Below, one piece after another: positions 25,749-42,973 of a stretch of 64,000 nucleotides of DNA. Every line of letters begins with the position of its first letter. The first letter of the stretch is position 1. Made by a program: the position numbers and the translations under genes. The DNA is from Alphaproteobacteria bacterium (GTDB lineage Bacteria > Pseudomonadota > Alphaproteobacteria > UBA828), in contig OZ243972.1 of the NCBI GenBank assembly GCA_965214705.1, positions 3,168,001-3,232,000 on the forward strand. Direction: 5' to 3'. The notes under the pieces were generated by a model. The model saw only the letters and a program-made list of their open reading frames with translations, ran no database searches and had not been told where the DNA came from.

Positions 25749-26432
25749 TCATCCTGACTGAGGGGGCGGCAGTCCGAACAGGAAACGACGGCTGCCCGCC
25801 AGCTCGCGGCGGCGCTTCAGGTCCATGGTGCAATCCTCGGCGGCATCCAGGGCGCGCACGGCGCTCTCGTAGAGCGGGAGGGCTGCGGCGACGGCGATGG
25901 AGGGCCGGATGCGCTCCACGGTGAAGTCCAGCTTTTCGCGCGCCTGCGCGATGGTGTAGCGGCCGTCCCGCACCCAATCGACGGTGATCCAGTCCAGCGT
26001 CTCCAGAAACGAGAGCGAATCCGCCGCCTGCACGAAGTCGGCCTCCCAGCCGCCGCCGATCTCGTGCCGCAGGATGAGCCGGCGCACCCGTCGGATGAAC
26101 GCCTCGTCCGGCGCCGGCGTGCGGCTGCGCAGCCACTCCTCGACGATATTGGCGGAGCGGGTGGAGTGGGCAAAGAGATAGTCGGGATCGTCGAAGCCGT
26201 TGCTCGGCGTGCTGGAAGGGCCGCCGGGGAAGAACCGCTCGGCATCGTGCGTCAGCGCCGCGAACCTGAGTTCTGGCGAGGCCTCGGGGCAGATCTTGAT
26301 CGCCCACATCCGCGTCGCGATCAGGTGCTCCAGTTGGTAGAAGCCGTCCAGCCATTCCATCGCGTCGTCTTCCAGCGGCGAGAGCGCAGCGTTCGCGTAG
26401 CGGCCGCGGGCGGGATACTCCATGTCGGTCAC
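25749..26432 (-). CDS. HD-domain / DUF4202-like putative metal phosphohydrolase
   Basis: H...LTHDAER...HS...RHE...ADSLSF pattern. Confidence 0.7.
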   Translation of the reverse strand: MTDMEYPARGRYANAALSPLEDDAMEWLDGFYQLEHLIATRMWAIKICPEASPELRFAALTHDAERFFPGGPSSTPSNGFDDPDYLFAHSTRSANIVEEWLRSRTPAPDEAFIRRVRRLILRHEIGGGWEADFVQAADSLSFLETLDWITVDWVRDGRYTIAQAREKLDFTVERIRPSIAVAAALPLYESAVRALDAAEDCTMDLKRRRELAGSRRFLFGLPPPQSG

Positions 26433-28804
26433 CTCTTCCTGGCACCGGAGCCGCGCGCGTCCCGTGCGTCCGCCAGCGCTTGCCAGACGCGCTCCGGCGT
26501 GAGCGGCAGGGTCGAGATTTCGACGCCATAGTCCGCCAGCGCATCGCAGACGGCGTTGGCGACCGCCGCCGCCGGCGGGATCGTGCCGACCTCGCCCACG
26601 CCGCGCACGCCGAAGGGCGTGACATGGGAGGGGACCTCGGTGTGCAGCAGGTCGATGGGCGGCACGTCCATGATGGTGGGCGCGAAGTAGTCCAGCATGC
26701 TACCGCTCACGAGCTGGCCCGTGCTCTCGTCGTAACGCAGCTCCTCCGCGAGCGCCGCGCCCAGCCCCTGCACCAGGCCACCCCGCACCTGGCCTTCGAC
26801 GAGCGGCGGGTTGACCACCACGCCGCAGTCGTGCGCCATCACGAAGCGCTCAACGTCGAACTCGCCGCTCTCGTCATCGACCGAGACGACGGCAGCGGCG
26901 GTCCCGAACGAGAACGATGCGTGCGAGGGCTCGAAGTGCGCGGACGCCTCCAAACCCGGCTCCTCGTCCTCCGGAATCCCCTGCCCGATCATCGCGCGGG
27001 TGAAGATGTCGGCGAGCGGCACGGTGCGGCCCGGCTCGTCCCTCACGCGCACGACGCGCCCGCGCACCTCCAGCGCTGCAGGCGTCGATTGCAGCACCAT
27101 GGCCGCGATGCGAAGGGTCTTGTCGCGCAGCGCACCCGCCGCCTCGCGGATGGCGCCGGCGGCGGCGATCAGGGTGCGCGAGGCGAAGGCCCCGGTGTTG
27201 AGCGGCGATGCGCCGCTGTCGCCGGCGTGGACCGTAATCGCCTCGTAGTCGATGCCGAAGACCTCTGCGCAGACTTGCGCGAACGCCGTCTCGCTGCCTT
27301 GCCCGAAGGTCGAGACGCCGGTGTAGAGGTCGATGCCGCCGGATCGGTTGGCCCGCAACGTCACGCTCTCGTGGGCGCCAAAGCGGGAGCCGCGGCCCGC
27401 GAGGAAGCGCGCGCTGGCATAGCCCGTGCGCTCGACGAAGGAGGCGAAGCCGATGCCGGTCAGCCGCTCGTCGTCCCGGCATTCCCGGCCTTCGGCGCGG
27501 TGGGTGTCGTAATCCACCGCGTCGGCGGCCATCTCCAGCGTCTTCAGGTAATCGCCGTTGTCGTAGACCGCGCGGCTCGGCGTGGTCCAGGGCAGGTCCT
27601 CCGGCCGCAGCATGTTCTGCCGCCGCAGCTCCAGCGGGTCGACGTCCAGCCGCCGCGCCAGCCGGTCAAGCAGAACCTCCAGCGCGAAGTTCACCTCCGG
27701 CTGGCCGTAGCCGCGATAGGCTCCGATCGGCGTCTTGTTGGTGAGCGCGACCCAGCGTTCGACCGTCGCATCGGCCACCTTGTAGGGGCCGGTGAAGACC
27801 ACGCTGGAAAGCTGCGCCGAGCCGTAGGTCGAGTTCCAGGCGCCGAGGTCGGTGGTGTACCGGTTGGTGATCGCGACGATGCGGCCGTCGGCCTCGGCAC
27901 CGATGCGGACGTCATGCACGGCCTCGCGCGCCTGAGTGCTGGCGCGGAAGAACTCGAGGCGGTCCTCGATCCACTTGACCGGACGCCGCAGCGCCATCGC
28001 GTGCAGCACCGCCAGCACGTCCTCGGGGTAGAGCCCGAGCTTCATGCCGAAGCCGCCGCCGACATCGGAGGCGATGACGCGGATGCAGCCCTCGTCGAGT
28101 GGCAGGCACTCCGCCAGCTGCTGCCGGATCAGGTGCGGCGTCTGGGTGGAGGCGTGGACCTCTAGCGTGCGGGCGCCGGCGCGCCAATGGGCGACGATGC
28201 CGCGCGCCTCCATCGGCAGCGCGCTCACCCGGTTCACGTGGAAGCGCCCCTCGACGACGACCGGGGCCGCTTCCATGCGGCTCTCCGGCTCGCCCGCGCG
28301 GTCCACGTTGCTGGTCAGCAGGTTCGAGGGCAGCGTTTCCGGATGCAGCACCGGCGCGTCGTCGGCGAGCGCGCCGAGCGTGTCGGTCACATGCGGCAGG
28401 GGCTCGTAGTCGATGTCGATCAGCTCCAGCGCGTCCTCGGCGACCGCGCGGCTGGTCGCGACCACGCTCACCACCGGCTGCCCCTCGTGGATCGCCTCCT
28501 CGCCTGCCAGCGCGTAGTAGGGCAGCAGCGGCGCGCCGGGCACGGGCCTCAGCACTGTCAGCGGCTCGCTCGCGGCCCGCACGTCGGCGCCGGTCAGGAT
28601 GTGCCGCACGCCGGCGAGCGCGCGGGCTTGCGCCACGTCGATCGCGCCGATGGCGGCGCGGGGGAAGGGGCAGCGGCCCACCGCCATCTCAAGCTGATGG
28701 GCAAGCTGTACGTCGTCGGTGAAGAGGCCGTCGCCGCGCAGCAGGCGGTCGTCCTCCTTGCGCGGGAGCGCGGCCCCGATGAGGCTACGGCGGGGTACGC
28801 TCAC
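26429..28804 (-). CDS. CoxL/xanthine-dehydrogenase-family molybdopterin subunit
   Basis: RKED.RLL, GGGFGMK, AYRGYGQPE, GQGSET, GVGE. Confidence 0.92.
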   Translation of the reverse strand: MSVPRRSLIGAALPRKEDDRLLRGDGLFTDDVQLAHQLEMAVGRCPFPRAAIGAIDVAQARALAGVRHILTGADVRAASEPLTVLRPVPGAPLLPYYALAGEEAIHEGQPVVSVVATSRAVAEDALELIDIDYEPLPHVTDTLGALADDAPVLHPETLPSNLLTSNVDRAGEPESRMEAAPVVVEGRFHVNRVSALPMEARGIVAHWRAGARTLEVHASTQTPHLIRQQLAECLPLDEGCIRVIASDVGGGFGMKLGLYPEDVLAVLHAMALRRPVKWIEDRLEFFRASTQAREAVHDVRIGAEADGRIVAITNRYTTDLGAWNSTYGSAQLSSVVFTGPYKVADATVERWVALTNKTPIGAYRGYGQPEVNFALEVLLDRLARRLDVDPLELRRQNMLRPEDLPWTTPSRAVYDNGDYLKTLEMAADAVDYDTHRAEGRECRDDERLTGIGFASFVERTGYASARFLAGRGSRFGAHESVTLRANRSGGIDLYTGVSTFGQGSETAFAQVCAEVFGIDYEAITVHAGDSGASPLNTGAFASRTLIAAAGAIREAAGALRDKTLRIAAMVLQSTPAALEVRGRVVRVRDEPGRTVPLADIFTRAMIGQGIPEDEEPGLEASAHFEPSHASFSFGTAAAVVSVDDESGEFDVERFVMAHDCGVVVNPPLVEGQVRGGLVQGLGAALAEELRYDESTGQLVSGSMLDYFAPTIMDVPPIDLLHTEVPSHVTPFGVRGVGEVGTIPPAAAVANAVCDALADYGVEISTLPLTPERVWQALADARDARGSGARKR

Positions 28805-29292
28805 GGTGAGGTCTCGGACTCGTCCACGCCCAGGTACGCCTCCACCGCGCGCCGGATGTTCTCGTAGCCGGTGCAGCGGCAGAGCACGCCGACAAGCTCC
28901 TCGCGGATCTCCGCGCGGGAGAGCGTCCGCCCGCTCGCCTTCAGGCTCTCCGCCAGCATCAGGAAGCCCGGCGTGCAGTAGCCGCATTGCAGCGCGTGGT
29001 GCCGCTTGAAGGCTTCTTGCGCGGCGTTCAGGCGGTCGCCCTCGGCCAGGGCCTCGACCGTCGTGACATCCGCGCCGTCCAGCTGCACGGCGAGCATGAG
29101 GCAGGACTTGATGGCCGCGCCGTCCACCAGGATCGTGCACATGCCGCAGACGCCCTGCTCGCAGCCGACGTGGGTGCCGGTCCAGCCCAGCCGATGGCGC
29201 AGGAAGTCGGCCGCGTGCATGCGGACGGGCGCCTCCGACGACACCGCCTCGCCGTTCAGGCGGAAGGCGATGGCAAGCTCATTGCCGCTCAA
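28801..29292 (-). CDS. Mo-hydroxylase 2Fe-2S subunit (CoxS-like)
   Basis: GCEQGVCGMC, QCGYCTPG, LCRCTGY. Confidence 0.92.
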   Translation of the reverse strand: MSGNELAIAFRLNGEAVSSEAPVRMHAADFLRHRLGWTGTHVGCEQGVCGMCTILVDGAAIKSCLMLAVQLDGADVTTVEALAEGDRLNAAQEAFKRHHALQCGYCTPGFLMLAESLKASGRTLSRAEIREELVGVLCRCTGYENIRRAVEAYLGVDESETSP

Positions 29293-29785
29293 CGGCGGCC
29301 TCCTTGGGTCGTGGCGCCGCGCCGGGCGCATCGGCGGCCGAAAGCGCCTGCTCCAGGTTGCCGGCGAACTCCGCGGTCACCTTCGCGGCGTGCTTGTTGA
29401 TCACGGCGCTTCCGACGGTGCCGAGCACGCCAGCGAGCGCGACCTCGCCCTCCACCGCGACGCAGGTTTCGCCGCCCTCGTCGGTCAGCGTGACCGCGTT
29501 CTGCGCCCGGAAATTGCCGACCGCGCCGCGCACCGCCTTGCCGGTCGCCGTGAACGCGATGCGCGCGCCGGCGACGCGTTCGGTGATGCGGACCTTGGCC
29601 TGGAAGGTCGTCGACATGGGCCCGAGTTTCTGGGTCGCGCGGACTGAATAACTGTCATCCTCGCCCTCCAGTGGCTCGGCCTCTTCGACGCCGGGCATGC
29701 ACTGCGCAACCTCCAGCGGCCGCTCGAAGAAGCGCCAGACCTCGTCGCCGCTCGCCCGGAGGCGGAACTCGTGGCGATATTTCAT
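29279..29785 (-). CDS. coxG: CoxG-like SRPBCC accessory protein
   Basis: VW....VAQCMPG; lies between the FAD and FeS subunit genes. Confidence 0.85.
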   Translation of the reverse strand: MKYRHEFRLRASGDEVWRFFERPLEVAQCMPGVEEAEPLEGEDDSYSVRATQKLGPMSTTFQAKVRITERVAGARIAFTATGKAVRGAVGNFRAQNAVTLTDEGGETCVAVEGEVALAGVLGTVGSAVINKHAAKVTAEFAGNLEQALSAADAPGAAPRPKEAAVERQ

Positions 29786-30654
29786 CGCACGGCCGCCAGC
29801 GCCGAGGCGCGCAGGTCGCGCAGCACCCGCGCGACGTAGATCGGCACCAGGTGGGCGCGGTACGCGGCCGAGCCCCGGATATCGTCGGGCGGGTCGATGG
29901 CGTCGAGCGCGGCTTCGCCCGCCGCCGCGATGTCCACGTCGTCGAGGCGGCTCCCCTCCAGCAACGCCATGCTGGCCTCGGCCAGAACCGGCGTGTCGTT
30001 GACCCCGCCGAGTCCGATGCGGAGCCCGCCCCAGCGGCCGTCATCGGCGATCCGTCCGGTCGCCGCCACCGAGAGCACGCAGAAATCGTTGTGCCGGCGG
30101 CAGCACTCGCGGAAGGCGAAGTGCGGCGGATGCGGAGGAAAGTGAACCTCGGTCAGCACCTCGTCGGGCGCGAGGGTGGCGGCGTAGGCGCCTTCGTAAA
30201 GGTCTTCCATTGCTATGGCGCGCGCGCCAGTTGGCCCGAGCACGTGGACCGTTGCGCCTAGAACCAGACAGCCCAGGGGCATCTCGCCCGTCGGGTCGCC
30301 CTGCACCAGGCTGCCGCCGATGGTGCCGCGATTGCGCACCTGGCGGTCGCCGACGAAGGCCACCATCGCCTTCAGCAGCGGCAGCCGTTCCGCGATCAGC
30401 GGCGAGAATTCGAGCGTGCTGTAGCGCACCGGCGCGCCGATGCGCGTCTCGTCTCCTTCTGCCGTCAGCCGGGCGAGGTCGGTGAGCCCGTTGATGTCGA
30501 CCACCGCGTCCGGGCGCCAGAGCCGCATGTTCATCATCGGCATCAGGCTCTGGCCGCCGGCCAGGATGCGGGCGCCGCCGTCGTAGTCCTGCAGGTAGCG
30601 CACCGCTTCGGCGATGTCGCCCGGCCGGTGGTAGGCGAAGTCGGCGCTCTTCAC
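29782..30654 (-). CDS. Mo-hydroxylase FAD subunit (CoxM-like)
   Basis: LAGGQSL, QVRNRGTIGGS, DDIRGSAAYR. Confidence 0.92.
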   Translation of the reverse strand: MKSADFAYHRPGDIAEAVRYLQDYDGGARILAGGQSLMPMMNMRLWRPDAVVDINGLTDLARLTAEGDETRIGAPVRYSTLEFSPLIAERLPLLKAMVAFVGDRQVRNRGTIGGSLVQGDPTGEMPLGCLVLGATVHVLGPTGARAIAMEDLYEGAYAATLAPDEVLTEVHFPPHPPHFAFRECCRRHNDFCVLSVAATGRIADDGRWGGLRIGLGGVNDTPVLAEASMALLEGSRLDDVDIAAAGEAALDAIDPPDDIRGSAAYRAHLVPIYVARVLRDLRASALAAVR

Positions 30655-31748
30655 CGGTCTCGGTGTCCGGGGCCCGCCGTCGCCACCCGGCCGCCCGAAA
30701 GCCGGGCGAGCACGTGCCCGACCGCGCTCCGGCTCTCGGAGACGAGGCCGGCACTCTCCCGCTGGCTCCACACCGTCTCGGGCCGGACCTGGAGGACGCG
30801 CACCGCGCCGTCAGCGCCGATGGCCCACTCGATGTCCTGCGCGGCGCCGCGATGCTCCTCGATCCGCTTGGCAAGCCGCGCCAGCGCGAGCGCCTCGGCA
30901 TCGTCGATGCAGGCGGCGTGCCCCCGCTCGGGCGCGGGCGGCATCAGGCGCACCGCGCCTGCAGCGGGATCGAAGCGGTATTCCTCGGCTTGGGGCACGA
31001 TGTCTCGCTTGACGATCTCCAGCGTCACCTTGTCGACGGTGAAGCGGCTCGGCGTCACGTCGCCCTTCACTACCCCCTCGCCGAGGCCCCAGCAGGCCTC
31101 CATGACGATCTTCGAGCGATCGCCGTTGAGCGGGTCAAGGGTGAACATGACGCCTGCGGCCCGCGCCTCCACCATCTGCTGGATGCCGACGCAGATGCCG
31201 TCGCCGCCCGCAGCCGCAGCGTCGCCGCAACCGGCGCGGTAGGAGAGGGCCGCGTCGCCGAACATGCTGGCCCAGCACGCGCGCACATGACGCAGCACCG
31301 CCTCGGCGCCACTGATCCAGAGGTAGGTGTCGTACTGGCCGGCGAAGCTCGCATCGGCGAGATCCTCCGCCTCTCCGCTGGAGCGCACCGCCACGGGCAC
31401 GCCGGCCCGGCCGGTCTTCTCTTCCAGAATCGCGTAGTTGCGCCGGATTGCCGTCTCCAGCCTATCCGGCATCGGGGCCGCGCCGATGGCCTCCACCAGC
31501 TGCGCCCGTGCGCTGCCGATCTCCGCGAGGGCCGCGCGGCGAGCGGCCTCCCGCACGAACGCGGCCTTATCGTCAAGGTCCGCGTGGGCCATGAAGACGC
31601 GATAGGCCGTGGTGGTCACGCCGAACCCCATAGGGACCGCGAAGCCGGCCGCCGTCATCTCGGCGAGGCTCGCGAACTTGCCGCCGAGCAGCGGGTTTTC
31701 CGGCGCGCCTTCCTGATCCAGCCACAGAATGTGGGGATCGTTGGTCAC
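30651..31748 (-). CDS. PEP synthase/PPDK N-terminal ATP-grasp subunit (PpsB/CreI-like)
   Basis: GGKFASL, VAVRSS..EDL..ASFAGQ, GLGE, QDIEW, QVRPET. Confidence 0.9.
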   Translation of the reverse strand: MTNDPHILWLDQEGAPENPLLGGKFASLAEMTAAGFAVPMGFGVTTTAYRVFMAHADLDDKAAFVREAARRAALAEIGSARAQLVEAIGAAPMPDRLETAIRRNYAILEEKTGRAGVPVAVRSSGEAEDLADASFAGQYDTYLWISGAEAVLRHVRACWASMFGDAALSYRAGCGDAAAAGGDGICVGIQQMVEARAAGVMFTLDPLNGDRSKIVMEACWGLGEGVVKGDVTPSRFTVDKVTLEIVKRDIVPQAEEYRFDPAAGAVRLMPPAPERGHAACIDDAEALALARLAKRIEEHRGAAQDIEWAIGADGAVRVLQVRPETVWSQRESAGLVSESRSAVGHVLARLSGGRVATAGPGHRDR

Positions 31749-33640
31749 GGCGCGACCCGCTCCAGAACCGTGACCGTGCCCTCGTTGCCGTCGACCTCGA
31801 CACGGTCGCCGGTCCGGATCGTCGCCGTCGCAAAGCCCACACCGACCACCGCAGGCAGCCCGTACTCGCGCGAGATAATCGCGGTATGGGCCATCATGCC
31901 GCCCACGTCGGAGACTGCCGCGCCAATACGGCCGAAGACGGTCGCCCAGCTTGGCGCTGTGATCCGGCAGACCAGGATCTCGCCCTCGTTGACGCTGTAG
32001 AGGTCTTCGGTGCGGGTAATCACACGGGCCGGACCGGTCACCTTGCCGGCGCACGCGGGCACGCCGCGCAGGACATCGCCGGCGGCGGCGGGATCGACCC
32101 CGAGCCACTCCTCGATCGTCTTTTCGGTGATACCCCAGAGCATGATGGTGATGGGCTCGGTGACGACCTCCGGCGGGGTTCCCAGCGCCGGCGGCGGCGT
32201 CCACTTGCAGAGCGAGTCCCGGATGCGCCGGCGCCGCTCGACGATGGGCCGCCAGTAGACCTCGCCGCGCGGCGGCGAGCCCGTCGCCCAGCCGATCAGC
32301 AGGTCGTAGAGCGCGTCATAGACCTCGTGGCGATGCAGGTAGAAGAGGTCCTCGCGGTCGTCGAGGAAGCCGTGGGCGACGAAGACATCCGCAAGCTCCC
32401 GCACCTTCGACCAGAAGATCGTGTGGTGCCAATGCTCGACGTAGAAGTTGTGGTCCTCGACGTAGGGAAAGACCTTGCAGGTGAGCGCGAGCAGGCCGTC
32501 GAACGCCTCGCGGTCCTGATCGGTGGGCAGCAGGGCGCGGTATTCCGCCGTCACCCGCTGCCGCTCCGCCAGCAGCCGCTCGAGCGGACGGCGGATGTCC
32601 TCGCCCCGCTGCAACGCCTCGACGTAGCCCCGCAGCGCGATGAAGGGCAGCCGCAGGTCGTCGATCCATACCGGATCCGAATGGTCGTAGCCGACGCCCG
32701 TGGAGAAGTGGAACCACGGCTCCTTCGCCGCCTCGAAGGCCTCCAGCCATTCGGCTCCGCCCGGTGCCTTCGCCATGGCCGCCAGCAGCGCGTCGGGGTC
32801 GTCGTGCTGCAGGACGATGCCGGCGAGGTTCCGCTCGACCGCCAGTTCGGCCAGCTCGCGCACCTTGTCGTCGGGCCGCAGCAGCAGGTTGTCGATGCCG
32901 CAGACGATTTGCGTCAGCGTGCGATCGGTGATGCCGGGAAACGCCCGCTGACAGAATTCGCGGAAGGTCAGGTAGGCGCCGTAGCCCAGGTTCAGCATCT
33001 CGAAATGGTAGGAGCCCATCTCGAGCATGTTCTCGATCAGCCGGTTGTAGGCGCTGAGCAGGTCGTGCGAGGAGTAGACGCCGCGGTGGCCGAAGACGTT
33101 CTCCTCGGGCTCCAGCTCCGGCAGCGGGCGGAACTCGATCTCGGTCAGGCGCGCGATGCAGTCCTTCGCCTTCTTGGCCCAGTTGCCGTAGATCTCGTCC
33201 CAGTTCTCGAAGTAATGGCCGGCGCGGCAGGTGAAGTGCTCGTTGCGCGCGGCGATCTGGTCTGGGTCGGTGACGCTGTTGGGGCTGACGTAGATGTAGC
33301 CGTTGACCAGCCGCTGATCGATGCCCATGGCGACCGGAATGGGCCAGACCCGGCTCGCCATCTGGCTGGCCGCCACCCACCAGTTCTCGGTCATGATGGT
33401 GTCGAAGGGATAGAGCGGCTCCGGGTTGTGCATCCCATCGAAGAACCAGAACTTTCCCTCCTCCATCGCGCGGCGTTCGTCGCTGATCAGGCAGTAATAG
33501 GGATATAGCTCCTCCCAGCCCTCGGCGCCGTCGGGCGTGGGCAGTTCGAACGGGCTCGGGAAGCCCCGGTTGAGGGGCGGCGTCGCCGCGGCCTCCGGGC
33601 CTGTCCCGGCGCTCTCGGGTGTGTCACTCATACGTGGCAC
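31745..33640 (-). CDS. PEP-utilising phosphohistidine subunit (PpsA/CreH-like)
   Basis: C-terminal swivel domain GGMMAHTAIISREYGLPAVVG; no pyruvate-binding domain. Confidence 0.88.
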   Translation of the reverse strand: MPRMSDTPESAGTGPEAAATPPLNRGFPSPFELPTPDGAEGWEELYPYYCLISDERRAMEEGKFWFFDGMHNPEPLYPFDTIMTENWWVAASQMASRVWPIPVAMGIDQRLVNGYIYVSPNSVTDPDQIAARNEHFTCRAGHYFENWDEIYGNWAKKAKDCIARLTEIEFRPLPELEPEENVFGHRGVYSSHDLLSAYNRLIENMLEMGSYHFEMLNLGYGAYLTFREFCQRAFPGITDRTLTQIVCGIDNLLLRPDDKVRELAELAVERNLAGIVLQHDDPDALLAAMAKAPGGAEWLEAFEAAKEPWFHFSTGVGYDHSDPVWIDDLRLPFIALRGYVEALQRGEDIRRPLERLLAERQRVTAEYRALLPTDQDREAFDGLLALTCKVFPYVEDHNFYVEHWHHTIFWSKVRELADVFVAHGFLDDREDLFYLHRHEVYDALYDLLIGWATGSPPRGEVYWRPIVERRRRIRDSLCKWTPPPALGTPPEVVTEPITIMLWGITEKTIEEWLGVDPAAAGDVLRGVPACAGKVTGPARVITRTEDLYSVNEGEILVCRITAPSWATVFGRIGAAVSDVGGMMAHTAIISREYGLPAVVGVGFATATIRTGDRVEVDGNEGTVTVLERVAP

Positions 33641-33722
33641 CTCGCGTCCTGCCGCCCGGCATCATGCCACGCGTGCGCCCAACGGTTCACGACCATAGGG
33701 CGAGGCGGATCGTGCGCCGGCG

Positions 33723-33893
33723 CTACTCGGCGGCGGCCGCGGCCTCCTGCGGCTCCCACTCGGGGATGCGGCCGTCGTAGTAGGGCATCTGCTCGACCCG
33801 CGGCGTCCACGAGCCGTTGTCGATGCAGGCGCGGACGTGGCGCGCGATCTCGTCCGGCCACGGCACCGGGTTCTCGATCAGCTTGAGCGTCAT
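33723..33893 (-). pseudogene. Internally deleted polysaccharide-deacetylase/PuuE-like gene (56 aa N- plus C-terminal fusion)
   Basis: MTLKLIENPVPWPD joined directly to EIARHVRACIDNGSWTPRVEQMPYY; good RBS (GAGGAGGG). Confidence 0.7.
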
Positions 33894-34015: not shown

Positions 34016-34083
34016 GCCGTGAGGATTTCGGTGGACTTGGACGTTCTGGGAGCCGGAATCCGCTGGCCGCACGAGAGGTTGGC

Positions 34084-34737
34084 ATGAGCGCCTCGAAACC
34101 ATCCTCGCAGGCGAAGGGGAACAGCCGGGAGCCTCGGCTTCGCGCGCTGGCGGAGGGCGAGCCCGCGCCGGTCATGGGCCTGCGCCAGGTCGGGATGGCG
34201 GACCTGCAGGGCGATGCGGTCGCCCCTGCCTCGATCCCTCATATCGAAGGGCTTAACCGGGAGATCGTCGCCCTGCTGCAGGAGGACGGCCGGACGCCGT
34301 TCTCCAGCATTGCGCGCACGCTGGGCGTCTCGGAAGGGACCGTGCGCTCCCGTGTGGGCCAGATGCACAAGGCCAACCTGATCCACTTCATCACGGTGGT
34401 GAACCCGCTGGCGCTGGGCTACACGGCCTGGTCGATGCTCGGCATCAAGGTCGCCCGCGGCGCCAGCGCCCATGAGGTGGCGTCCCACTTCCGCGATCGG
34501 CCGGAGGTCGTCTATGTCATGCGCGTCGCCGCGCGCTTCGACCTGCTGGCTGAGGTGGTGTGCGGCTCGCCCGACGAGCTGCGCGAATTCCTCGATGACC
34601 ATTGCTACGGCTCGGACGACATCGCCCAGGTCGAGCCGATGATGGGGCTGGGCCTCTACAAGAGCCTGTTCAAGTGGGACAAGCCGCTCGGCGCCGGCGA
34701 TGGCCGCGGCAAGTCGGCCGGACGCAGCAGCCGGTAG
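34084..34737 (+). CDS. Lrp/AsnC-family regulator
   Basis: LQEDGRTPFSSIARTLGVSEGTVRSRV HTH plus RAM domain. Confidence 0.9.
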   Translation: MSASKPSSQAKGNSREPRLRALAEGEPAPVMGLRQVGMADLQGDAVAPASIPHIEGLNREIVALLQEDGRTPFSSIARTLGVSEGTVRSRVGQMHKANLIHFITVVNPLALGYTAWSMLGIKVARGASAHEVASHFRDRPEVVYVMRVAARFDLLAEVVCGSPDELREFLDDHCYGSDDIAQVEPMMGLGLYKSLFKWDKPLGAGDGRGKSAGRSSR

Positions 34738-34774
34738 CGGCCAACGCATAAGAAGAAAGGGGAGACCAACCGCC

Positions 34775-36010
34775 ATGAGCAAGCGCCGCATCATGCCTAC
34801 CGGACACTGGGACTGGAGCATGCCGGTCACGCTCTCCCAGGGCTGGCGGCTGGGCGATCTGGTCGTGGTCGGCGGCCAGATTTCGGCGGATGATAAGGGC
34901 CGCACGGTCGGCGGCGACATCGAGACCCAGACCCGCAACATCATGGAGTTCATCGGCCGGGTGTTGCGCGAGTCGGGCGCCGACTTCGGCGATGTGGTGA
35001 AGCAGAACGTCTACTACGTGGTCGATGACGAGAGCCCGCCGGCGGACGAGATCGTGCGGCGCATCGACGCGGTGCAGGCCGAGTATTTTGCGGCGCCGGG
35101 CCCAGTCACGACCGAGACGCCGGTCTCCGGCCTCGCCTACGAGGGGCTGCTGCTGGAGATCGACGCCTTCGCCGTGGTGGGTGCAAACAAGCGCCCGCTC
35201 ACGCCCGAGGGCCACTGGTCGCGTGGCAACGGCATCGCCTGCGTCCAGGGCTGGCAGGCGGGCGACTGGGTCTTCGTCGGCGGCCAGCGCTCGCTCAACG
35301 GAGACGGCTCGCTCAGGGATGCCGGCGACATCGCAGCCCAGACCCGCAATTGCTTCAACGGCATGGCGGGCGTCCTTGCCGAGGCCGGCGCCTCGATGAA
35401 CGACCTCTTGCGCCTCAACACCTACTACCGGCACGAGACCGCGGGCGCCGACGTGACCGCGTTCTGGGAGGCGCTGACTCGGGTGCGCATGGAGCACCTG
35501 CCGAACCCGGGGCCCGCCGGCACGGGGCTCAGGGTCAAGGATTTCTCTCATCCGGGCGAGCTGATTCAGATCGAGGGCGTTGCTCATCTCGGCCAGGAGC
35601 GCCGGCGCATCATGCCGGCAGGCCACTGGGACTGGAGCATGCCGGTACCCTTCTCCCAGGGCTGGCGGGTCGGCAACGTCGTCTTCGCGGGCGGTCAGAT
35701 CTCCGCCGACCGGAAGGGGCGGACGGTCGGCCCCGGCGACATCGCCCAGCAGACCGAGAACGTGTTCGAGAGCCTGATCGCGGTGCTGGGCGAGGCCGGC
35801 GCCGAGATGAGCGACGTGGTCAAGCTCAACACCTATTACCAGTACGACGACGGCAGCGCCTCGCCCACGGAGTACTGGGAGAAGATGACCGAAGTGCGGC
35901 GGCGCTACTTCCCGCCGCTCGGGCCGGCGGCGACGGCGGTCCGCGTGGACGGCTACGCCTTCGAGGACCTGCTGATCGAGATCGAGGCAATTGCCGTGGT
36001 GGGCGAGTGA
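34775..36010 (+). CDS. Three-domain RidA/YjgF-family protein
   Basis: Three repeats of GH/W..QGW..GGQ..DI..QT..EI[DE]. Confidence 0.88.
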   Translation: MSKRRIMPTGHWDWSMPVTLSQGWRLGDLVVVGGQISADDKGRTVGGDIETQTRNIMEFIGRVLRESGADFGDVVKQNVYYVVDDESPPADEIVRRIDAVQAEYFAAPGPVTTETPVSGLAYEGLLLEIDAFAVVGANKRPLTPEGHWSRGNGIACVQGWQAGDWVFVGGQRSLNGDGSLRDAGDIAAQTRNCFNGMAGVLAEAGASMNDLLRLNTYYRHETAGADVTAFWEALTRVRMEHLPNPGPAGTGLRVKDFSHPGELIQIEGVAHLGQERRRIMPAGHWDWSMPVPFSQGWRVGNVVFAGGQISADRKGRTVGPGDIAQQTENVFESLIAVLGEAGAEMSDVVKLNTYYQYDDGSASPTEYWEKMTEVRRRYFPPLGPAATAVRVDGYAFEDLLIEIEAIAVVGE

Positions 36011-36059
36011 TGCTGTCAGGGTGCTTTTCTCACCACCGCCGGCCTCCGGGGTGACATGA

Positions 36060-36941
36060 ATGGCCCAGGGACAAGCCGGGGGCTCACCGCCGTCCGATGC
36101 GAATGCGCATCCGGGCGACACCGCTCCCGCGCCGGTCTTCAAGCCGCCCCGCCAGCCCTTCCTGGAGGTGCTCGGCTCGCTCACGCAACGGCGCACCGTG
36201 GTGCTGGGCGTCGCGGGCGTCATCATCTTCTTCGCCGTCTGGGAGGTCGCCCACTACGTCACGCCCGAGGAGAAGCAGCGCTTTCTGCCCGCCGTCGAGC
36301 AAGTGGTGGCCGAGATCGCCTTTCTCTTCGCCGAGAAGAACTTCATCGCCGATGTCGGTACCAGCCTCTACCGCATCTACGCCAGTTTCTTCGTCGCCAG
36401 CCTGATCGCCGTGCCGCTCGGCGTCTTCATGGGCTGCTTCGTCAAGGCACGCGCGCTGATCAGCCCCACCACGGGGGGCTGGCGCTATCTGCCGGCGGCC
36501 TCCTTCGCGCCGCTCCTGCTGGTGTGGTTCGGGCCCACCGACTTCGCCAAGATGGCGCTGCTCTTCCTCGGCTGCTTCTTCTTTCTCGTGGCGCTGATCC
36601 TCGACAACACGCTCGCGGTCCAGCGCGAGCTGATCGAATCCGGCCTCACCATGGGGGCCAAGCGGCGGCAGGTGGTGGGCATCACGTTCCGGGCCGCCGC
36701 ACCCGCCATCCTCGATTCCATGCGCAACATGATCGCGGTCGCCTGGACCTACCTGGTGATCGCCGAGATCATCGTGGCGACCGACGGCATCGGCGCGGTG
36801 ATGATGCGGGCCGCGCGCTTCCTCCACGTCGACATCATGATGGGCGGCATCCTCACCATCGGCGTGCTCGGCGTGCTGACCGACATCACGTTCCGCATCG
36901 CGAGCCGGCTGCTCTTCCCGTACCTGCGGGTCAGGCGCTAG
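36060..36941 (+). CDS. ABC permease (TauC/SsuC type)
   Basis: AWTYLVIAE..ATDGIG. Confidence 0.88.
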   Translation: MAQGQAGGSPPSDANAHPGDTAPAPVFKPPRQPFLEVLGSLTQRRTVVLGVAGVIIFFAVWEVAHYVTPEEKQRFLPAVEQVVAEIAFLFAEKNFIADVGTSLYRIYASFFVASLIAVPLGVFMGCFVKARALISPTTGGWRYLPAASFAPLLLVWFGPTDFAKMALLFLGCFFFLVALILDNTLAVQRELIESGLTMGAKRRQVVGITFRAAAPAILDSMRNMIAVAWTYLVIAEIIVATDGIGAVMMRAARFLHVDIMMGGILTIGVLGVLTDITFRIASRLLFPYLRVRR

Positions 36942-36952
36942 GAGGCGGCGGG

Positions 36953-37798
36953 ATGGCGGTCTTCGGCTTGGGGAGAACGGCGGCGGCGCAGGCGGGAGCG
37001 AATGCCCCGGTGCCGGGCACGCCCCCGTTGCGCGCCAACCGGGTCACCAAGAGCTATCTCAAGGGCAGCGTGATTGCTCTCGACGACGTTTCCTTCGACG
37101 TTCATGCCAACCAGGTCACGGCGATGATCGGCCCGTCGGGCTGCGGCAAGACGACGATGCTGCGGCTGATGGCGGGCCTCGAATACCCCTCGCGGGGCGA
37201 CGTGACCATGTTCGGCCAGCCGATCATGGGGCCGGGGCCGGAGCGCGGCATGGTGTTCCAGGCCTACACGTCTTTCCCGTGGCTCACGACGCGGGCCAAC
37301 ATCGAGTACGGGCTGAAGCTCCAGGGGCTTGCGAAGGCGGAGCGGCGCGAACGCGCCGAGCACTTCCTCGAGCTGGTTCATCTGGAGGGGTTCGCCAATG
37401 CCTATCCGGCCGAGCTATCCGGCGGCATGAAGCAGCGCGTCTCCATCGCGCGCACGCTGGCGCAGAACCCGGCGCTGCTGTTGCTGGATGAGCCCTTCGG
37501 CGCGCTCGACGCCCAGGTCACCTGGGAAATGGAGGAGATGATCATCGAGATCATCGAGCGTGAGAACAAGACGGTGGTGGTAGTGACCCACGACATCCAG
37601 GAGGCGATCTACCTCGCCGACAGGATCATCTTCTACACACGGCAGCCGGGGCGGATCAAAGCCGACCTCCCTATGGCGTTCAAGGAAGGCCGCCGCTTCC
37701 GCAAGAAGGAGGAGATGCTCGTGCATCCGGGCTATGTGGACATGGAGCGGCGGCTCTACGCGATGATGCGCGAGGAAATCCGGGGGCGGGTCAGCTAG
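36953..37798 (+). CDS. ABC ATPase (TauB/SsuB type)
   Basis: GPSGCGKT, LSGGMKQR, DEPFGALD. Confidence 0.9.
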   Translation: MAVFGLGRTAAAQAGANAPVPGTPPLRANRVTKSYLKGSVIALDDVSFDVHANQVTAMIGPSGCGKTTMLRLMAGLEYPSRGDVTMFGQPIMGPGPERGMVFQAYTSFPWLTTRANIEYGLKLQGLAKAERRERAEHFLELVHLEGFANAYPAELSGGMKQRVSIARTLAQNPALLLLDEPFGALDAQVTWEMEEMIIEIIERENKTVVVVTHDIQEAIYLADRIIFYTRQPGRIKADLPMAFKEGRRFRKKEEMLVHPGYVDMERRLYAMMREEIRGRVS

Positions 37799-37841
37799 GG
37801 ACCGCCTCCACGGTCAAACCGAAGCAGAGGGAGAATCGAAC

Positions 37842-38882
37842 ATGCTGTGGCGAACATCCATCATAACACTGGCGGCCTGCGCGCTCGCGTTCGGCGTCGT
37901 CAGTGCCGCGAGCGCGAAGGACACCGTCCGGGTCGCGCACTTCAGCTGGCCGGGCTACGGCTTCCTCCATATCGCCAAGGCGAAGGGCATGCTGCCCGAG
38001 AACATGGACCTCGAAATCTCGATCATCGAGGACCCGGTGCAGAGCATGGGCCTGCTCGCGAGCGGCCAGCTCGACGTCGTGACCAGCACCATCGAGTTCG
38101 GCCCGATCGCGCTAGCCGAGGACATGCCGGTGAAGCTGCTCGGCCTCACCAATCTCGGCAACGGCTCGGACCGCATCATCGTGGGGCCCGACATCAAGGA
38201 GCCGGGGGATCTCAGGGGCAAGAAGGTCGGTGTCATCGAAGGCGGGCTTTCGCAGATCTACATGGCGATCTGGCTGGAGCAGCAGGGCATCAAGTGGGAC
38301 GAGGTGGAGATGGTGAACCTCTTCCCGGATGCCGCCGCAGCCGCGATGATCGCGGGTCAGCTCGACGCCGCCGAGCTCTGGGACCCCTACGGCCCGCAGG
38401 TGCTGGAAGAGCTCGCGGGCTCGCGCGAGATGAGCCATTCCGGCGAGGAATACTGGCTCAAGGAAGGCCTGATCGCCGACGCGATCTTCGTCTCCGACGC
38501 GTTCATTGCGGAAAACCGCGACCTGCTGGTGGCGCTGATCAAGTCCCGCTACGAGGCGGTCGAGTGGTGGCGTCAGAACCCCACCGAGGGCAATGAAATG
38601 ATCGCCGGGATCCTGCAGTGGGGCGTGCCGGACGTGGAGCCCATCCTCGGTGGCGTGAACAACCCCGACGACGGTACCCTCTACATGTATAGTCTGGAGG
38701 AATCGGCGCAATTCTGCGGCGTTGCCGAGGGCGAGCCGCCCTTCGGCCAGCGCAACGGCCAGCTCGCCGACCATTGGGAGCTCACCAACAAGTGGTGGTT
38801 GACCTTTGGCCTGATGACCGAGACGGTCGCTCCGGCGGAGGGGATCGATTGCTCGATCCTCAAGGACGCGCTCGGCGGGTAA
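37842..38882 (+). CDS. ABC substrate-binding protein (SsuA/THI5-like)
   Basis: Signal peptide, WPGY, DLRGKKVG, WDPY. Confidence 0.85.
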   Translation: MLWRTSIITLAACALAFGVVSAASAKDTVRVAHFSWPGYGFLHIAKAKGMLPENMDLEISIIEDPVQSMGLLASGQLDVVTSTIEFGPIALAEDMPVKLLGLTNLGNGSDRIIVGPDIKEPGDLRGKKVGVIEGGLSQIYMAIWLEQQGIKWDEVEMVNLFPDAAAAAMIAGQLDAAELWDPYGPQVLEELAGSREMSHSGEEYWLKEGLIADAIFVSDAFIAENRDLLVALIKSRYEAVEWWRQNPTEGNEMIAGILQWGVPDVEPILGGVNNPDDGTLYMYSLEESAQFCGVAEGEPPFGQRNGQLADHWELTNKWWLTFGLMTETVAPAEGIDCSILKDALGG

Positions 38883-38951
38883 GGTTGGGGTGCGGGCGGC
38901 GTCATCGGGGCGCTGCCCGTATCGCCCGGTACGGACCAGGGAGACGATCGA

Positions 38952-40472
38952 ATGGCGCTGCTTGAGATGCACGAATGGTACGACCTCGCGCGGGATACCA
39001 ACTGGACTCCCGGCTACGTCGCCGAGGAGGAGATCTTTCCGCCCGAACTCAGCGATCCCTACGGGATTTCGGTCGAGCAGTGGGAGACCTTCGACGAGCC
39101 CTACAAGGTCTGCTACCGGGACTATGTCGAGACCCAGCGCGACAAGGACATCGGCGCCTATTCGGTGAAGTCGGCGCTGGCGCGCGCGGACTTCTTCAAG
39201 AAGGCCACACCGCACTGGAAGGCGCTGCTCGCGCTGCACTTCAGCCCGATCGGCTTCGCCGAATTCCACTCGGCGTCCGCCTTCGCGCGGATGACCCGGT
39301 TCAGCCGGGCGCCGGGTATGCGCAACATGGCGACCTTCGGCACGCTGGACGAAATGCGTCACGGCCAGATCCAGATGTATTTCGCCTACGAGTTCATCAA
39401 GCAGGACCGCGTCTTCGATTGGGCGCACAAGTCGTCCAAGACCGAGAACTGGATCATCATCAGCCTGCGTCATGCGCTGGACGACATCGAGCACACGCGC
39501 GATGCGATCAGCGCCGCGATCATGACCAACTTCGCCTTCGAGCAGGGCTTCACCAACCTGCAGTTCATCGGCCTCTCGGCGGACGCCGCCAAGGCCGGCG
39601 ATCACACCTTCGCCACCATGCTGCAGAGTATCCAGACCGACGAGGCGCGCCATGCGCAGATCGGCACGCCGCTCATCAGCATCATGATCGAGAACGGGCG
39701 CAAGGCGGAGGCGCAGCAGCTGGTCGATATCGGCTTCTGGCGCATCTGGAAGCAGTTCTCGGCGCTCAGCGGCATCTCCATGGACTACTACACGCCGCTG
39801 GAGTTCCGCGAGCACTCGCTCAAGGAGTTCATGCACGAGTGGGTGGTCGATCAATTCGCCCGCAACATGAAGGCGATCGGCCTCGACCTGCCCTGGTACT
39901 GGGACTACTTCCTCCACGATATCGAGACCTTCCACCATTGCCAGCAGATCGGCATCTACGTCTACCGCGCGACGCAGTGGTGGCGGCCCATCGCCTGCGT
40001 CTCGCCGGCCGAGCGCGACTGGCTGGAGGAGAAGTATCCGGGCTGGAACGACACCTACGGCAAGTGCTGGGACGTGGTGATCGACAATATCCGAGGCGGC
40101 CGCTTCGAGAAGACGGTGCCCGAGGTGCCGCCGCTGATCTGCAACATGTGCGGGCTGGAGGTGACCGGGATTGCGGGCGTCGGGCGCCAGGTGAACGGCC
40201 GCACATGGAACGCGACGAACTTCCACCTCGATCACGAAGGCCGGCGCTATCACTTCTGCTCCGAGCCCTGCAAGTGGGTCTTCGAGCTGGAGCCCGCCCG
40301 CTACCAGGGACACCGCAGCATCATAGACCGGTTGCTGGACGGCACCGTGCCGCCCGGCCCCGACGGCTTCTATGAGTACATGGGCCAAAGCTTCGAGGAA
40401 CGCGGCGTCTGCGGCTACGACTATCAGTGGGTCGACGGCTACGACGTGCCGCGCGCCGCGGCGGCGGAGTAG
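38952..40472 (+). CDS. Soluble diiron monooxygenase hydroxylase alpha subunit (TmoA-like, YHS tail)
   Basis: WYDLARDTNWTP, DEMRH, FEQGFTNLQF, DEARH, FCSEPCKW. Confidence 0.93.
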   Translation: MALLEMHEWYDLARDTNWTPGYVAEEEIFPPELSDPYGISVEQWETFDEPYKVCYRDYVETQRDKDIGAYSVKSALARADFFKKATPHWKALLALHFSPIGFAEFHSASAFARMTRFSRAPGMRNMATFGTLDEMRHGQIQMYFAYEFIKQDRVFDWAHKSSKTENWIIISLRHALDDIEHTRDAISAAIMTNFAFEQGFTNLQFIGLSADAAKAGDHTFATMLQSIQTDEARHAQIGTPLISIMIENGRKAEAQQLVDIGFWRIWKQFSALSGISMDYYTPLEFREHSLKEFMHEWVVDQFARNMKAIGLDLPWYWDYFLHDIETFHHCQQIGIYVYRATQWWRPIACVSPAERDWLEEKYPGWNDTYGKCWDVVIDNIRGGRFEKTVPEVPPLICNMCGLEVTGIAGVGRQVNGRTWNATNFHLDHEGRRYHFCSEPCKWVFELEPARYQGHRSIIDRLLDGTVPPGPDGFYEYMGQSFEERGVCGYDYQWVDGYDVPRAAAAE

Positions 40473-40481
40473 GCGCGTATC

Positions 40482-40742
40482 ATGGCCGACATCCCGCTCG
40501 CCGTGCTGCTCGAAGGCGACTACGGCTACAAGGTGCAGGTCTTCGACACCGGCGACACCATGGCGGTGCTGGCGGAGAAGGTCGCCGACCAGGTCGCGGG
40601 CGTCCTGGTGGCGTCGTTCCCGCCCGAGGCCGTCCTCAAGGTCCGCGTGCAGGGCAGCGCAGACCCGTTGCCCGACGAGCTGACCATCGCCGACGCCGGC
40701 TTCGTCGAGATGGAATCCGTGGAAATCTACCGCGCCGGCTGA
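40482..40742 (+). CDS. SDIMO gamma subunit (TmoB-like)
   Basis: PL...EGDY, DTM..LA, ubiquitin-like size; follows alpha. Confidence 0.85.
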   Translation: MADIPLAVLLEGDYGYKVQVFDTGDTMAVLAEKVADQVAGVLVASFPPEAVLKVRVQGSADPLPDELTIADAGFVEMESVEIYRAG

Positions 40743-40773
40743 GCAGGCCACGGCGGGTAAGGAGACGTCGAGC

Positions 40774-41067
40774 ATGACGACGGCAGACGACGCCGGCAAT
40801 CTCGTGGGCCCGGTGATGCGCGCGGGCGACATCGCCGATGCGGTGCTCGAAGCGATCCAGGAGGACAACGAGGGGCGCGAGGTCATCACCGAGGAACACG
40901 CGTCCTACATCCGGATCAAGGTCGCGGACGAGTGCTTCGTGCGCTTCGAGACGGTGGGCGACGTGCTGGGCCGCACGGTCACCCGCGGCGACATCGAGGC
41001 GAACATGCCGAGCTTCGCAGGGTTCATTCGCACCGAACCGGACGGCATCCGGTTCGTCGCGCGCTAG
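40774..41067 (+). CDS. SDIMO effector/coupling protein (TmoD/MmoB/DmpM)
   Basis: NLVGPVMRAGDIA..AI.EDN, YIRI, SFAG.I. Confidence 0.9.
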   Translation: MTTADDAGNLVGPVMRAGDIADAVLEAIQEDNEGREVITEEHASYIRIKVADECFVRFETVGDVLGRTVTRGDIEANMPSFAGFIRTEPDGIRFVAR

Positions 41068-41078
41068 GGAGTACGGAC

Positions 41079-42068
41079 GTGGCGGTCGAAGTCAAAGGCA
41101 TGAAGACGTGGAGCGGCCTCGCCGAGAAGCGGCGGCGGCCCAGCGAGTACGAAGTCGTCACTACCAATCTGCAGACCCGCACGCGGCACCCGGATCAGGC
41201 CTACGAGCTTTCGCCGGCGCCGGACCTGGGGATGAACGAATTCTACAAGCAGAACGTCTCGGAGAGCCCGTTCCAGCACCCGGACTGGGAGGGATATCGC
41301 GACCCCGACGAGATGATCTACCGCGTCTACACGCGAATTCAGGACCAGCAGGAGCAGTACGTCGACGGTCTGCTCGACGAGCACAACGAGATCGGCCACG
41401 ACGCGACGCTCAGTGACGCCTGGCTCGACGCGCTGGAGCGACTCTACACGCCCCGACGCTTCCTGCAGATGGCGCTGCAGATGGGCGCGGCCTATCTGGT
41501 GCAGATTGCGCCCGCGAGCACGATTACGGCCTGCGCCGGGTTTCAGGACGGCGACGAGTTTCGCTGGCTTTCCCGCTGCGCCTACCGGGCGCGCGAGCTG
41601 CAGCGCGCGCATCCTTCGCGCGGCTTCGGCCAGACCGAGCGCCGCACCTGGGAGGAGGAGCCCGCCTGGCAGGGCTTCCGCGAGTTGCTGGAGAGGACGC
41701 TCTCCACCTACGACTGGGGCGAGCACTTCGTGGCGCTCAACCTGGTGGCGAAACCGGCGGCGGACGAGGCGCATCGCCAGCTCGGCCGCGTCGGGCGGCG
41801 CTTCGACGACGGTCTGCTCGGGCTGCTAGCCGACAACCAGATGCGGGACAGCGAGCGTTCGCGGCGCTGGAGCGCGGCGCTCGTCGCCTTCTCGCTGGAG
41901 AACGAGGCGAACGCCGCCGTCCTCAGCGGCTGGATCGAGAAGTGGATGCCACTCGCGCGCCAGGCGGTCGATACCTATTGCGGCGCGCTGCCGGAGCAGG
42001 ACGACGCAGCGGACGCCACTCTCGCGGCAGTCGAGGCCTTCCACCGGAGCCTCGGTCTCGACGCTTAG
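41079..42068 (+). CDS. SDIMO hydroxylase beta subunit (TmoE-like)
   Basis: KTWS.L..RRRPSEYEVVT, DWEGYRDPD, YDWGE.FVALNLV.KP. Confidence 0.92.
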   Translation: MAVEVKGMKTWSGLAEKRRRPSEYEVVTTNLQTRTRHPDQAYELSPAPDLGMNEFYKQNVSESPFQHPDWEGYRDPDEMIYRVYTRIQDQQEQYVDGLLDEHNEIGHDATLSDAWLDALERLYTPRRFLQMALQMGAAYLVQIAPASTITACAGFQDGDEFRWLSRCAYRARELQRAHPSRGFGQTERRTWEEEPAWQGFRELLERTLSTYDWGEHFVALNLVAKPAADEAHRQLGRVGRRFDDGLLGLLADNQMRDSERSRRWSAALVAFSLENEANAAVLSGWIEKWMPLARQAVDTYCGALPEQDDAADATLAAVEAFHRSLGLDA

Positions 42069-42943: not shown

Positions 42944-42973
42944 GGCACAGCCTGCCGCCCCGGCCTGCGTCGT

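Follow-up and report, generated by a model that had tools for sequence, protein, structure and literature searches.

We have found that the region from 25749 to 42068 of the window, the whole 64,000-nucleotide stretch of alphaproteobacterial DNA analyzed here (contig OZ243972.1), probably holds two catabolic modules that are conserved independently and have come to lie side by side in this genus. Module 1 (25749-33640, minus strand) encodes a molybdenum (Mo) hydroxylase resembling HpdA, a pair of proteins resembling a split phosphoenolpyruvate (PEP) synthase and an HD-fold protein. Module 2 (33747-42068) encodes an Lrp/AsnC regulator, a triple Rid-domain protein, an ABC importer and a soluble diiron monooxygenase, and includes the remnant of a polysaccharide-deacetylase-family gene. 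The juxtaposition best fits a recent event confined to one genus of uncultured Alphaproteobacteria, whose nearest named loci are metagenome-assembled genomes labelled Alphaproteobacteria or Rhodospirillales. A preliminary description had read the region as a divergon centered on Lrp that serves one linear pathway of import, diiron hydroxylation, phosphorylation, Mo hydroxylation and dephosphorylation. All gene types that it named were recovered with Pfam where it had placed them. The single pathway was not supported: the modules are separable within the genus, and no linkage was found outside it. An Lrp-type regulator is present, but as the first gene of the rightward unit and not as a free-standing separator between operons. 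Lrp travels with the monooxygenase cluster (as in genomes G077 and G108), and the HpdA-like module elsewhere has a GntR regulator.

Co-occurrence of the two operons, which had been set beforehand as the refutation test, fails outside one genus. An alignment of the PEP-utilizing mobile-domain protein (PEP-mobile) was used to scan one genome per species, which yielded 78 loci; the rightward genes were present in none of the 68 more distant HpdA-like loci, 37 of which extend at least 9 kb upstream. Metagenome contigs were likewise scanned with an alignment of the TmoA clade, giving 80 loci (five near-identical, 65 at 60-79% identity and 10 below 60%), and the PEP pair was absent from all 65 related contigs of the 60-79% group. 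Three genomes from other genera that are 99-100% complete (G077, G108 and G252) carry the monooxygenase together with Lrp, triple Rid, ABC importer and deacetylase-family genes, and a PEP-mobile ortholog (E <= 1e-20) was found in none of them. Within a sample of 401 genomes of the class, TmoA-like proteins occur in 11 and PEP-mobile-like proteins in two, and both occur only in the genome of the window (G000).

The modules also come apart among the 21 genomes compared within the genus. Both are present in 11, and neither in four. Five have the monooxygenase only, namely G002, G015, G016 and G018, which are 98-100% complete, and G010, which is 62% complete. A single genome, G013 (locus L028), has only the PEP module, with the monooxygenase lost and a truncated Rid3 gene and permease remnants left beside it. 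The deacetylase-family gene is divergent to Lrp across the genus loci examined, including those of genomes that lack the Mo module. Two other loci are disrupted in ways of their own: in G012 (L012), an insertion of about 2.8 kb interrupts the PEP-mobile gene and only a remnant of the deacetylase gene is left, and in G009 (L014) Rid3 and TmoA have no ABC genes between them.

The leftward operon, judged by its sequence, is clearly a member of the published 3hpd/HpdA family. In the portions of the HpdA preprint that were covered (bioRxiv 10.1101/2020.01.08.898148), the enzyme of Ensifer adhaerens HP1 is a Mo hydroxylase with a separate SRPBCC subunit as its hallmark, and it converts 3-hydroxypyridine to 2,5-dihydroxypyridine only together with the adjoining PEP-utilizing orf10 and PPDK-type orf9, while orf7-orf8 are dispensable for conversion in a heterologous host. 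The orf8 of that paper presumably corresponds to the HD-fold protein gene. The order in the window of PEP-mobile, PPDK N-terminal, FAD, SRPBCC, iron-sulfur and molybdenum-cofactor proteins equals orf10-orf9-hpdA4-A3-A2-A1 of the Ensifer paper. Four separate open reading frames (ORFs) encode the Mo hydroxylase, including a stand-alone SRPBCC/CoxG protein, and the PEP-utilizing and PPDK-type genes adjoin the gene for the FAD subunit. The PEP-mobile protein is strongly conserved, with 67-75% identity across phyla and a mobile-domain residue, H585, that is invariant in 20 sequences. When the whole module was scored by six marker genes, the HD gene among them, it was present in 53 of the 78 loci, nine of them near-identical (PEP-mobile at least 90% identical) and 44 more distant, spanning Alpha-, Beta- and Gammaproteobacteria and Actinomycetota. 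Thirteen of the scanned loci and two further proteins come from strains named in the legend of Figure 8 of the HpdA paper as having orthologous 3hpd clusters, such as Salinicola peritrichatus JCM 18795, Pusillimonas caeni KCTC 42353 and Geodermatophilus sabuli DSM 46844. Identity to the loci of these strains is 65-72% for PEP-mobile and 62-72% for CoxL. The likeness to Ensifer HpdA that had been proposed for the region is thus borne out by an equal gene order and by a homolog set that includes the Figure 8 strains.

What sets the module of this genus apart is what it lacks. A NicX-like gene occurs in 35 of the 44 distant whole-module loci versus none of the nine near-identical ones, and the same comparison gives 33/44 versus 0/9 for an alpha/beta hydrolase gene and 33/44 versus 0/9 for a GntR gene. 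In the closest of the distant relatives (L038, L044 and L050), two genes lie between CoxG and CoxS, of which one is strongly NicX-like (PDB 7cn3, E 3e-88) and the other, in L044 and L050, is an alpha/beta hydrolase; a GntR gene follows the HD gene in these relatives. Because NicX and the hydrolase are part of the module in most other lineages, the product there is taken to be 2,5-dihydroxypyridine. The linked maleamate-pathway genes of HpdA-type clusters, NicX and others, are missing here, with no NicX-like gene in the window. The sole NicX homolog of the window's own genome is 47% identical and lies at G000:C3:842276-843286, where a Rieske oxygenase and an ABC system of the sugar type are its neighbors. 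Two ORFs of the same genome with sub-threshold Peptidase_M29 matches were considered as NicX and rejected at 21-24% identity to module-borne NicX. With the NicX, hydrolase and GntR genes gone, membership of the family does not by itself tell which compound the module acts on here or what becomes of its product.

The last gene of the leftward module is present in 53/53 whole-module loci, being itself a marker gene for scoring them. Its product matches DUF4202 of Pfam below threshold (20.6 bits versus a cut-off of 35.1), and a DUF4202-like sequence profile gave no match in the PDB. In an alignment of 21 sequences, H33, H59-D60, H86, H120-E121 and D135 are invariant. The AlphaFold model has a predicted local distance difference test score (pLDDT) of 89.7, and its top Foldseek matches are nearly all HD-superfamily hydrolases, with a best E-value of only 0.022 and none at E <= 0.001. 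The H...HD...H...D motif of HD-domain phosphohydrolases is thus found, by alignment and model, on an all-helical HD fold. The model supports the fold of the "HD protein" named in the preliminary description, and a phosphatase role, which would fit a cycle of phosphorylation, hydroxylation and dephosphorylation, is plausible.

The rightward module appears to be a widespread and undescribed cluster. Its enzyme has the alpha, gamma, effector and beta subunits of a TMO-type monooxygenase with two E...EXXH motifs, and TmoA residues E104, E134, H137, E197, E231 and H234 align with the six positions that we take to be the diiron ligands. Relatives of TmoA at 62-82% identity occur in other Alphaproteobacteria. 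Among the clade contigs at 60-79% identity, Rid3 and deacetylase-family genes lie 3' of TmoE in 28/28 with at least 3.5 kb downstream, and, of the 20 with at least 4.5 kb upstream, 13 have Lrp and 12 have ABC genes. Outside the clade (below 60%), Rid3 and deacetylase genes were found in none of five contigs with enough flank. At aligned positions that presumably line the pocket, the clade has S107, E180, H181, T192, Q198 and Q225, where other TMO-type sequences and ToMO have A, M, M/N/F, L, T and S/T. The polar pocket and the dedicated importer suggest that the diiron cluster handles an imported polar nitrogen compound.

An ordinary hydrocarbon monooxygenase of the toluene, alkene or isoprene type, with neighbors unrelated to it, is improbable as a reading of this cluster. 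It would account for TmoA scoring 627 bits against the alpha subunit of ToMO and 599 bits against T4MO, and for the retention of all six ligand positions, and it finds an echo in the convergent SDR gene at 42254-42943, whose product is IsoH-like (278 bits versus a cut-off of 350). A 2025 review, in the parts covered, also assumes aromatic hydrocarbons for uncharacterized TMO subgroups (PMC11825192). However, the 28/28 linkage to Rid3 and deacetylase genes versus 0/5 outside the clade is hard to reconcile with unrelated neighbors, the enzyme comes with an ABC importer of its own and a regulator of the amino-acid type, and at positions 107, 180, 181, 192, 198 and 225 the clade has Glu, His, Gln, Ser and Thr in place of hydrophobic residues. 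A search of the window for a glutathione transferase gene was also negative.

The partners of the monooxygenase have features of their own. None of the three domains of the triple Rid protein has an arginine at the position aligned to the PAR-motif Arg of PDB 2dyy; T, G and A stand there instead. The conserved active-site arginine of RidA-type imine deaminases, which we take to be Arg105 of RidA, is therefore missing. The binding protein is distantly related to its nearest solved structures, which are taurine, sulfonate and formylaminopyrimidine binders (E 7e-10 to 9e-6). By tblastn, the deacetylase-family gene of the window is reduced to residues 33-46 and 299-334 of a protein that has 341 amino acids in relatives. 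Compared with L009 and L013 by blastn, the gene has lost 754 bp internally, and the junction of this deletion is at 33851-33855, where five bases are common to both sides. The remnant lies in the 443-bp gap between the Lrp and PEP-utilizing genes, and a promoter-like site is predicted near Lrp at 33987-34015. It is this loss that gives the window the look of an Lrp-centered divergon. The intact gene of relatives belongs to PF01522, and its product, a distant relative of PuuE, falls short of a PuuE-type allantoinase (81.9 bits in NCBIfam versus a cut-off of 424.6); the closest solved structure, 3rxz, is without assigned function. A paralog with 72% identity adjoins a Rid3 paralog on contig C3.

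The TmoA/B/D/E-like enzyme named in the preliminary description was recovered with its four subunit genes, without the Rieske ferredoxin (TmoC) and reductase (TmoF). The six-gene TMO operon encodes a Rieske ferredoxin and an NADH reductase, according to section 3.1 of the 2025 review (PMC11825192), whereas the 31-bp spacer between TmoB and TmoD in the window leaves no room for a ferredoxin gene and neither gene follows TmoE. More distant clade members have both: among the 60-79% contigs, a Rieske ferredoxin gene lies between TmoB and TmoD in 44 of 53 and a reductase gene 3' of TmoE in 20 of 28. In at least nine clade contigs, as in the window, a ferredoxin gene would not fit, because the TmoB-TmoD gaps are only 7-88 bp (L119, L122, L123, L125, L126, L130, L132, L133 and L180). 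Six of these extend to Rid3, and they leave no space for a reductase gene. The window's own genome has a second TMO-type set dispersed over three contigs (Table 1), which may supply the window hydroxylase in trans.

It has also to be considered that the Mo hydroxylase takes the place of ferredoxin and reductase, passing electrons from its own substrate to the diiron center, so that two hydroxylations would be obtained per O2 without NADH. The operon without TmoC and TmoF is consistent with this, as are the requirement of a Mo hydroxylase for an electron acceptor and the presence of other CoxL/S/M-like genes nearby in G002 and in the ferredoxin-less contig L119, where the set lies 3' of the deacetylase gene. 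What speaks against the idea is that operons without a ferredoxin gene also occur with no Cox gene close by, in L132 and L133 (10-kb flanks) and in G077, G015, G016 and G018, and that a TmoC-like ferredoxin and a TmoF-like reductase are available in trans; we consider it very unlikely.

Several observations weigh against reading the region as two independent modules. Adjacency is retained in the window and nine other genomes of the genus. The HpdA-like module immediately follows the deacetylase gene and shares its strand, divergent from Lrp, with no terminator-like site found between the two in L030, and the regulator and ring-cleavage genes that the module has elsewhere are gone. Taken together, this would suit capture by an Lrp-controlled unit and hence cooperation. 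A search of plasmid records with CoxL for the Ensifer HP1 plasmid gave no match above 40% among the 30 matches listed, with all 1035 below 60%. The arginine-less Rid domains make a deaminase step in the proposed logic weak. Electron supply is a further weak point, since the rest of the genome offers the monooxygenase just a single TmoC-like gene (C3) and a single TmoF-like gene (C2, 38%).

Cooperation of the modules within the genus is possible. In its full form it would be a genus-restricted single pathway under Lrp, in which an imported heteroaromatic compound is turned by the diiron enzyme into an intermediate of the 3-hydroxypyridine type that is then phosphorylated, Mo-hydroxylated and dephosphorylated. 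Besides the retained adjacency, the lost GntR, NicX and hydrolase genes (0/9 versus 33-35/44) and the position behind the Lrp-divergent deacetylase gene, it can draw on diiron monooxygenases known to act on pyridine rings, HpdABCDE of Burkholderia sp. MAK1 and PmlABCDEF (PMC8313251, as far as covered). Against it stand the lack of co-occurrence elsewhere (0/68, 0/65 and none in the 400 other genomes of the class sample), the four nearly complete genomes that keep the monooxygenase without the Mo module and G013, which keeps the Mo module after loss of the monooxygenase. Moreover, the monooxygenase cluster has downstream enzymes of its own, no dihydroxypyridine ring-cleavage gene is found in the window, and the only NicX homolog is the one on C3 beside a Rieske oxygenase. 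We therefore regard this pathway as doubtful and favor two modules that are conserved independently.

A mechanism can be proposed for each of the two modules. From what is known of the family, the phenylphosphate-synthase-like pair of module 1, a 70-kDa His-carrier and a 40-kDa ATP-grasp protein, would phosphorylate a ring hydroxyl, and the four-component Mo hydroxylase would add a water-derived hydroxyl next to the ring nitrogen, after which the HD-fold protein could take the phosphate off. In module 2, the importer would bring in a polar compound that contains nitrogen, the diiron enzyme would oxygenate it, the deacetylase-family amidohydrolase would hydrolyze an amide, and the Rid protein would process the product. 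In this family the monooxygenase operon has lost ferredoxin and reductase, and in this genome the amidohydrolase gene is deleted. More tentatively, the TmoA clade may form a new functional class of soluble diiron monooxygenases acting on an imported polar nitrogen compound, such as a heterocycle or a cyclic amine, and not on a hydrocarbon, with hydrolytic C-N cleavage by the deacetylase-family enzyme and a triple arginine-less Rid protein to follow. In this genus a captured HpdA-type, phospho-dependent Mo hydroxylase would be added, giving a hybrid route as in the preliminary description.

The stretch is about 68% G+C and most of its long ORFs are therefore shadows; genes were chosen by codon-position G+C and then confirmed with Pfam, and start codons were refined afterwards. 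The overlapping stops and starts that had been reported for the leftward operon hold as 4-bp overlaps at four junctions (CoxS/CoxL, CoxM/CoxG, PPDK-N/CoxM and PEP-mobile/PPDK-N). The CoxG/CoxS overlap is 14 bp, and CoxL and the DUF4202-like gene would also overlap by 4 bp, provided that the latter starts with the GTG at 26432. Every NCBIfam match of CoxL is below its cut-off. The rightward genes do not overlap and are separated by spacers of 9-69 bp.

Table 1. Genes of the two modules in the window, followed by the second TMO-type set elsewhere in the same genome
Feature	Position	Strand	Evidence and remarks
HD-fold protein (weak DUF4202 match)	25749-26423 or 26432 (GTG start)	-	last gene of the HpdA-like module; likely phosphohydrolase
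CoxL/HpdA1-like Mo-cofactor-binding large subunit	26429-28804	-	Pfam MoCoBD_1, MoCoBD_2, Ald_Xan_dh_C; GTG start at 28804
CoxS/HpdA2-like [2Fe-2S] small subunit	28801-29292	-	Pfam Fer2_2, Fer2; TTG start at 29292, AAGGAGG upstream
CoxG/SRPBCC separate subunit (HpdA3-like)	29279-29785	-	Pfam COXG, 60.2 bits
CoxM/HpdA4-like FAD-binding medium subunit	29782-30654	-	Pfam FAD_binding_5, CO_deh_flav_C
PPDK N-terminal (ATP-grasp) protein, orf9-like	30651-31748	-	Pfam PPDK_N, 301 bits; GTG start at 31748
PEP-utilizing mobile-domain protein, orf10-like	31745-33631 or 33640	-	Pfam PEP-utilizers; NCBIfam PRK08296 subfamily, 792 bits, above cut-off
Polysaccharide-deacetylase-family gene remnant (PF01522)	33747-33893	-	tblastn, blastn versus relatives
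Lrp/AsnC regulator	34084-34737	+	Pfam HTH_AsnC-type, AsnC_trans_reg
Triple Rid-domain protein, 411 aa	34775-36010	+	Pfam, three L-PSP stretches
ABC permease	36060-36941	+	Pfam BPD_transp_1
ABC ATPase	36953-37798	+	Pfam ABC_tran
NMT1-type (SsuA/TauA-like) binding protein	37842-38882	+	Pfam NMT1
TmoA	38952-40472	+	Pfam
TmoB	40482-40742	+	Pfam
TmoD	40774-41067	+	Pfam
TmoE	41079-42068	+	Pfam
Second TMO alpha, gamma, Rieske ferredoxin and effector	G000:C3:1536048-1538526		behind an IS110 transposase
Second TMO beta subunit	C1:2677692-2678651		beside thiolase and acyl-CoA dehydrogenase genes
TmoF-like reductase, 38%	C2:357106-358104		

Further genes were noted on both sides of the two modules. A second Mo-hydroxylase set of CoxL, CoxS and CoxM, followed by an SDR gene and a caprolactamase-like hydantoinase A/B pair, occupies 15668-23792 (minus strand); the best NCBIfam match of this CoxL is pucD/XdhA, below cut-off. 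After the HD gene lies a zinc alcohol dehydrogenase-like gene (24071-25357, minus strand) that scores above the crotonyl-CoA carboxylase/reductase cut-off (544.6 versus 378.6 bits). A second trio of SDR and hydantoinase A/B genes spans 42254-47066. Its SDR gene (42254-42943, minus strand), which points toward the monooxygenase operon, has IsoH from isoprene catabolism as its best match and adjoins TmoE in 12/12 in-genus loci examined. Directly after the second hydantoinase pair comes a complete urease operon, ureABC and ureEFGD (47173-52665, minus strand). A pyruvoyl-type histidine-decarboxylase-like gene (153 bits versus a cut-off of 347) adjoins a PotA-type ABC transporter at 11067-14885 (minus strand). 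The left border of the catabolic block, at 1381-9416, contains two DDE_Tnp_1 transposases, an IS91-type Y2 transposase, a phage-type integrase and an IS1595-type transposase.

Expression was approached through the contigs of four RNA-library runs, from which level, strand and co-induction are not readable, and RNA libraries may contain DNA. Pieces about 91-99% alike to Lrp, Rid3, permease, binding protein, TmoA, TmoE and HydB2 were among the longest listed, and one of 1,481 nt has TmoA running into TmoB; among the pieces listed, PEP-mobile and CoxS/CoxG came from run X17 only. These contigs give no indication on co-regulation either way. As a lead on habitat only, DNA runs labelled as sponge or coral metagenomes contain 29-34% of the sampled words of window positions 32000-41900.

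The 2025 review of soluble diiron monooxygenases describes most TMO-type sequences as being without known function, and its main text has no mention of "deacetylase", "endoribonuclease" or "hydroxypyridine" (PMC11825192, as far as covered). In the literature searched, with most subscription journals and supplements outside its coverage, no paper was found that connects Rid or deacetylase-family genes to a diiron monooxygenase, or that brings such an enzyme together with molybdenum and a PEP-synthase-like pair. A search for PEP-utilizing, PPDK, molybdenum hydroxylase and SRPBCC together found nothing, one for CreHI/CreD gave nothing useful, and 3-hydroxypyridine, dihydroxypyridine and phosphoenolpyruvate occurred together only in the HpdA preprint. 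The fixed partners of the TmoA clade (triple Rid, deacetylase-family hydrolase, Lrp and ABC importer), its polar pocket and its wide occurrence in marine metagenomes make its substrate directly testable. For the HpdA family, the constant seventh gene, which encodes the HD-fold protein, and the NicX gene embedded in most lineages lend support to a cycle of phosphorylation and dephosphorylation, and so help to explain why the Mo hydroxylase needs a PEP-synthase-like pair, a question left open by the original paper (bioRxiv 10.1101/2020.01.08.898148, in the portions covered). The region further illustrates how a conspicuous divergent layout can come about through an accident of neighborhood in a single lineage.

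Among known systems, module 1 is closest to Ensifer HpdA, with which it shares a four-component Mo hydroxylase with separate SRPBCC protein, a PEP-utilizing and PPDK-type pair, gene order and homolog set. It differs in having no NicX, deformylase-like hydrolase or GntR gene and in adjoining a diiron monooxygenase cluster. With phenylphosphate synthase of Thauera and CreHI of Corynebacterium, both cited in the HpdA preprint, it shares a split PEP-synthase-like pair (about 70 and 40 kDa) that in those systems phosphorylates aromatic hydroxyls, and the mobile-domain histidine is kept here; the window pair, a putative counterpart, instead has a Mo hydroxylase and an HD-fold protein as its partners. 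The MAK1 cluster reportedly contains maleamate-pathway genes and neither a Rid nor a deacetylase-family gene. Module 2 resembles HpdABCDE and PmlABCDEF, by their description, as a soluble diiron monooxygenase that would act on a nitrogen heteroaromatic. With ToMO and T4MO (PDB 1t0q, 3dhg) it has in common the alpha, gamma (TmoB), effector (TmoD) and beta subunits, the six ligand positions and a C-terminal YHS domain in alpha, but its operon is without Rieske ferredoxin and reductase genes, and it is distinguished by polar substitutions in the pocket and by linkage to an importer, a triple Rid protein and a deacetylase-family gene.

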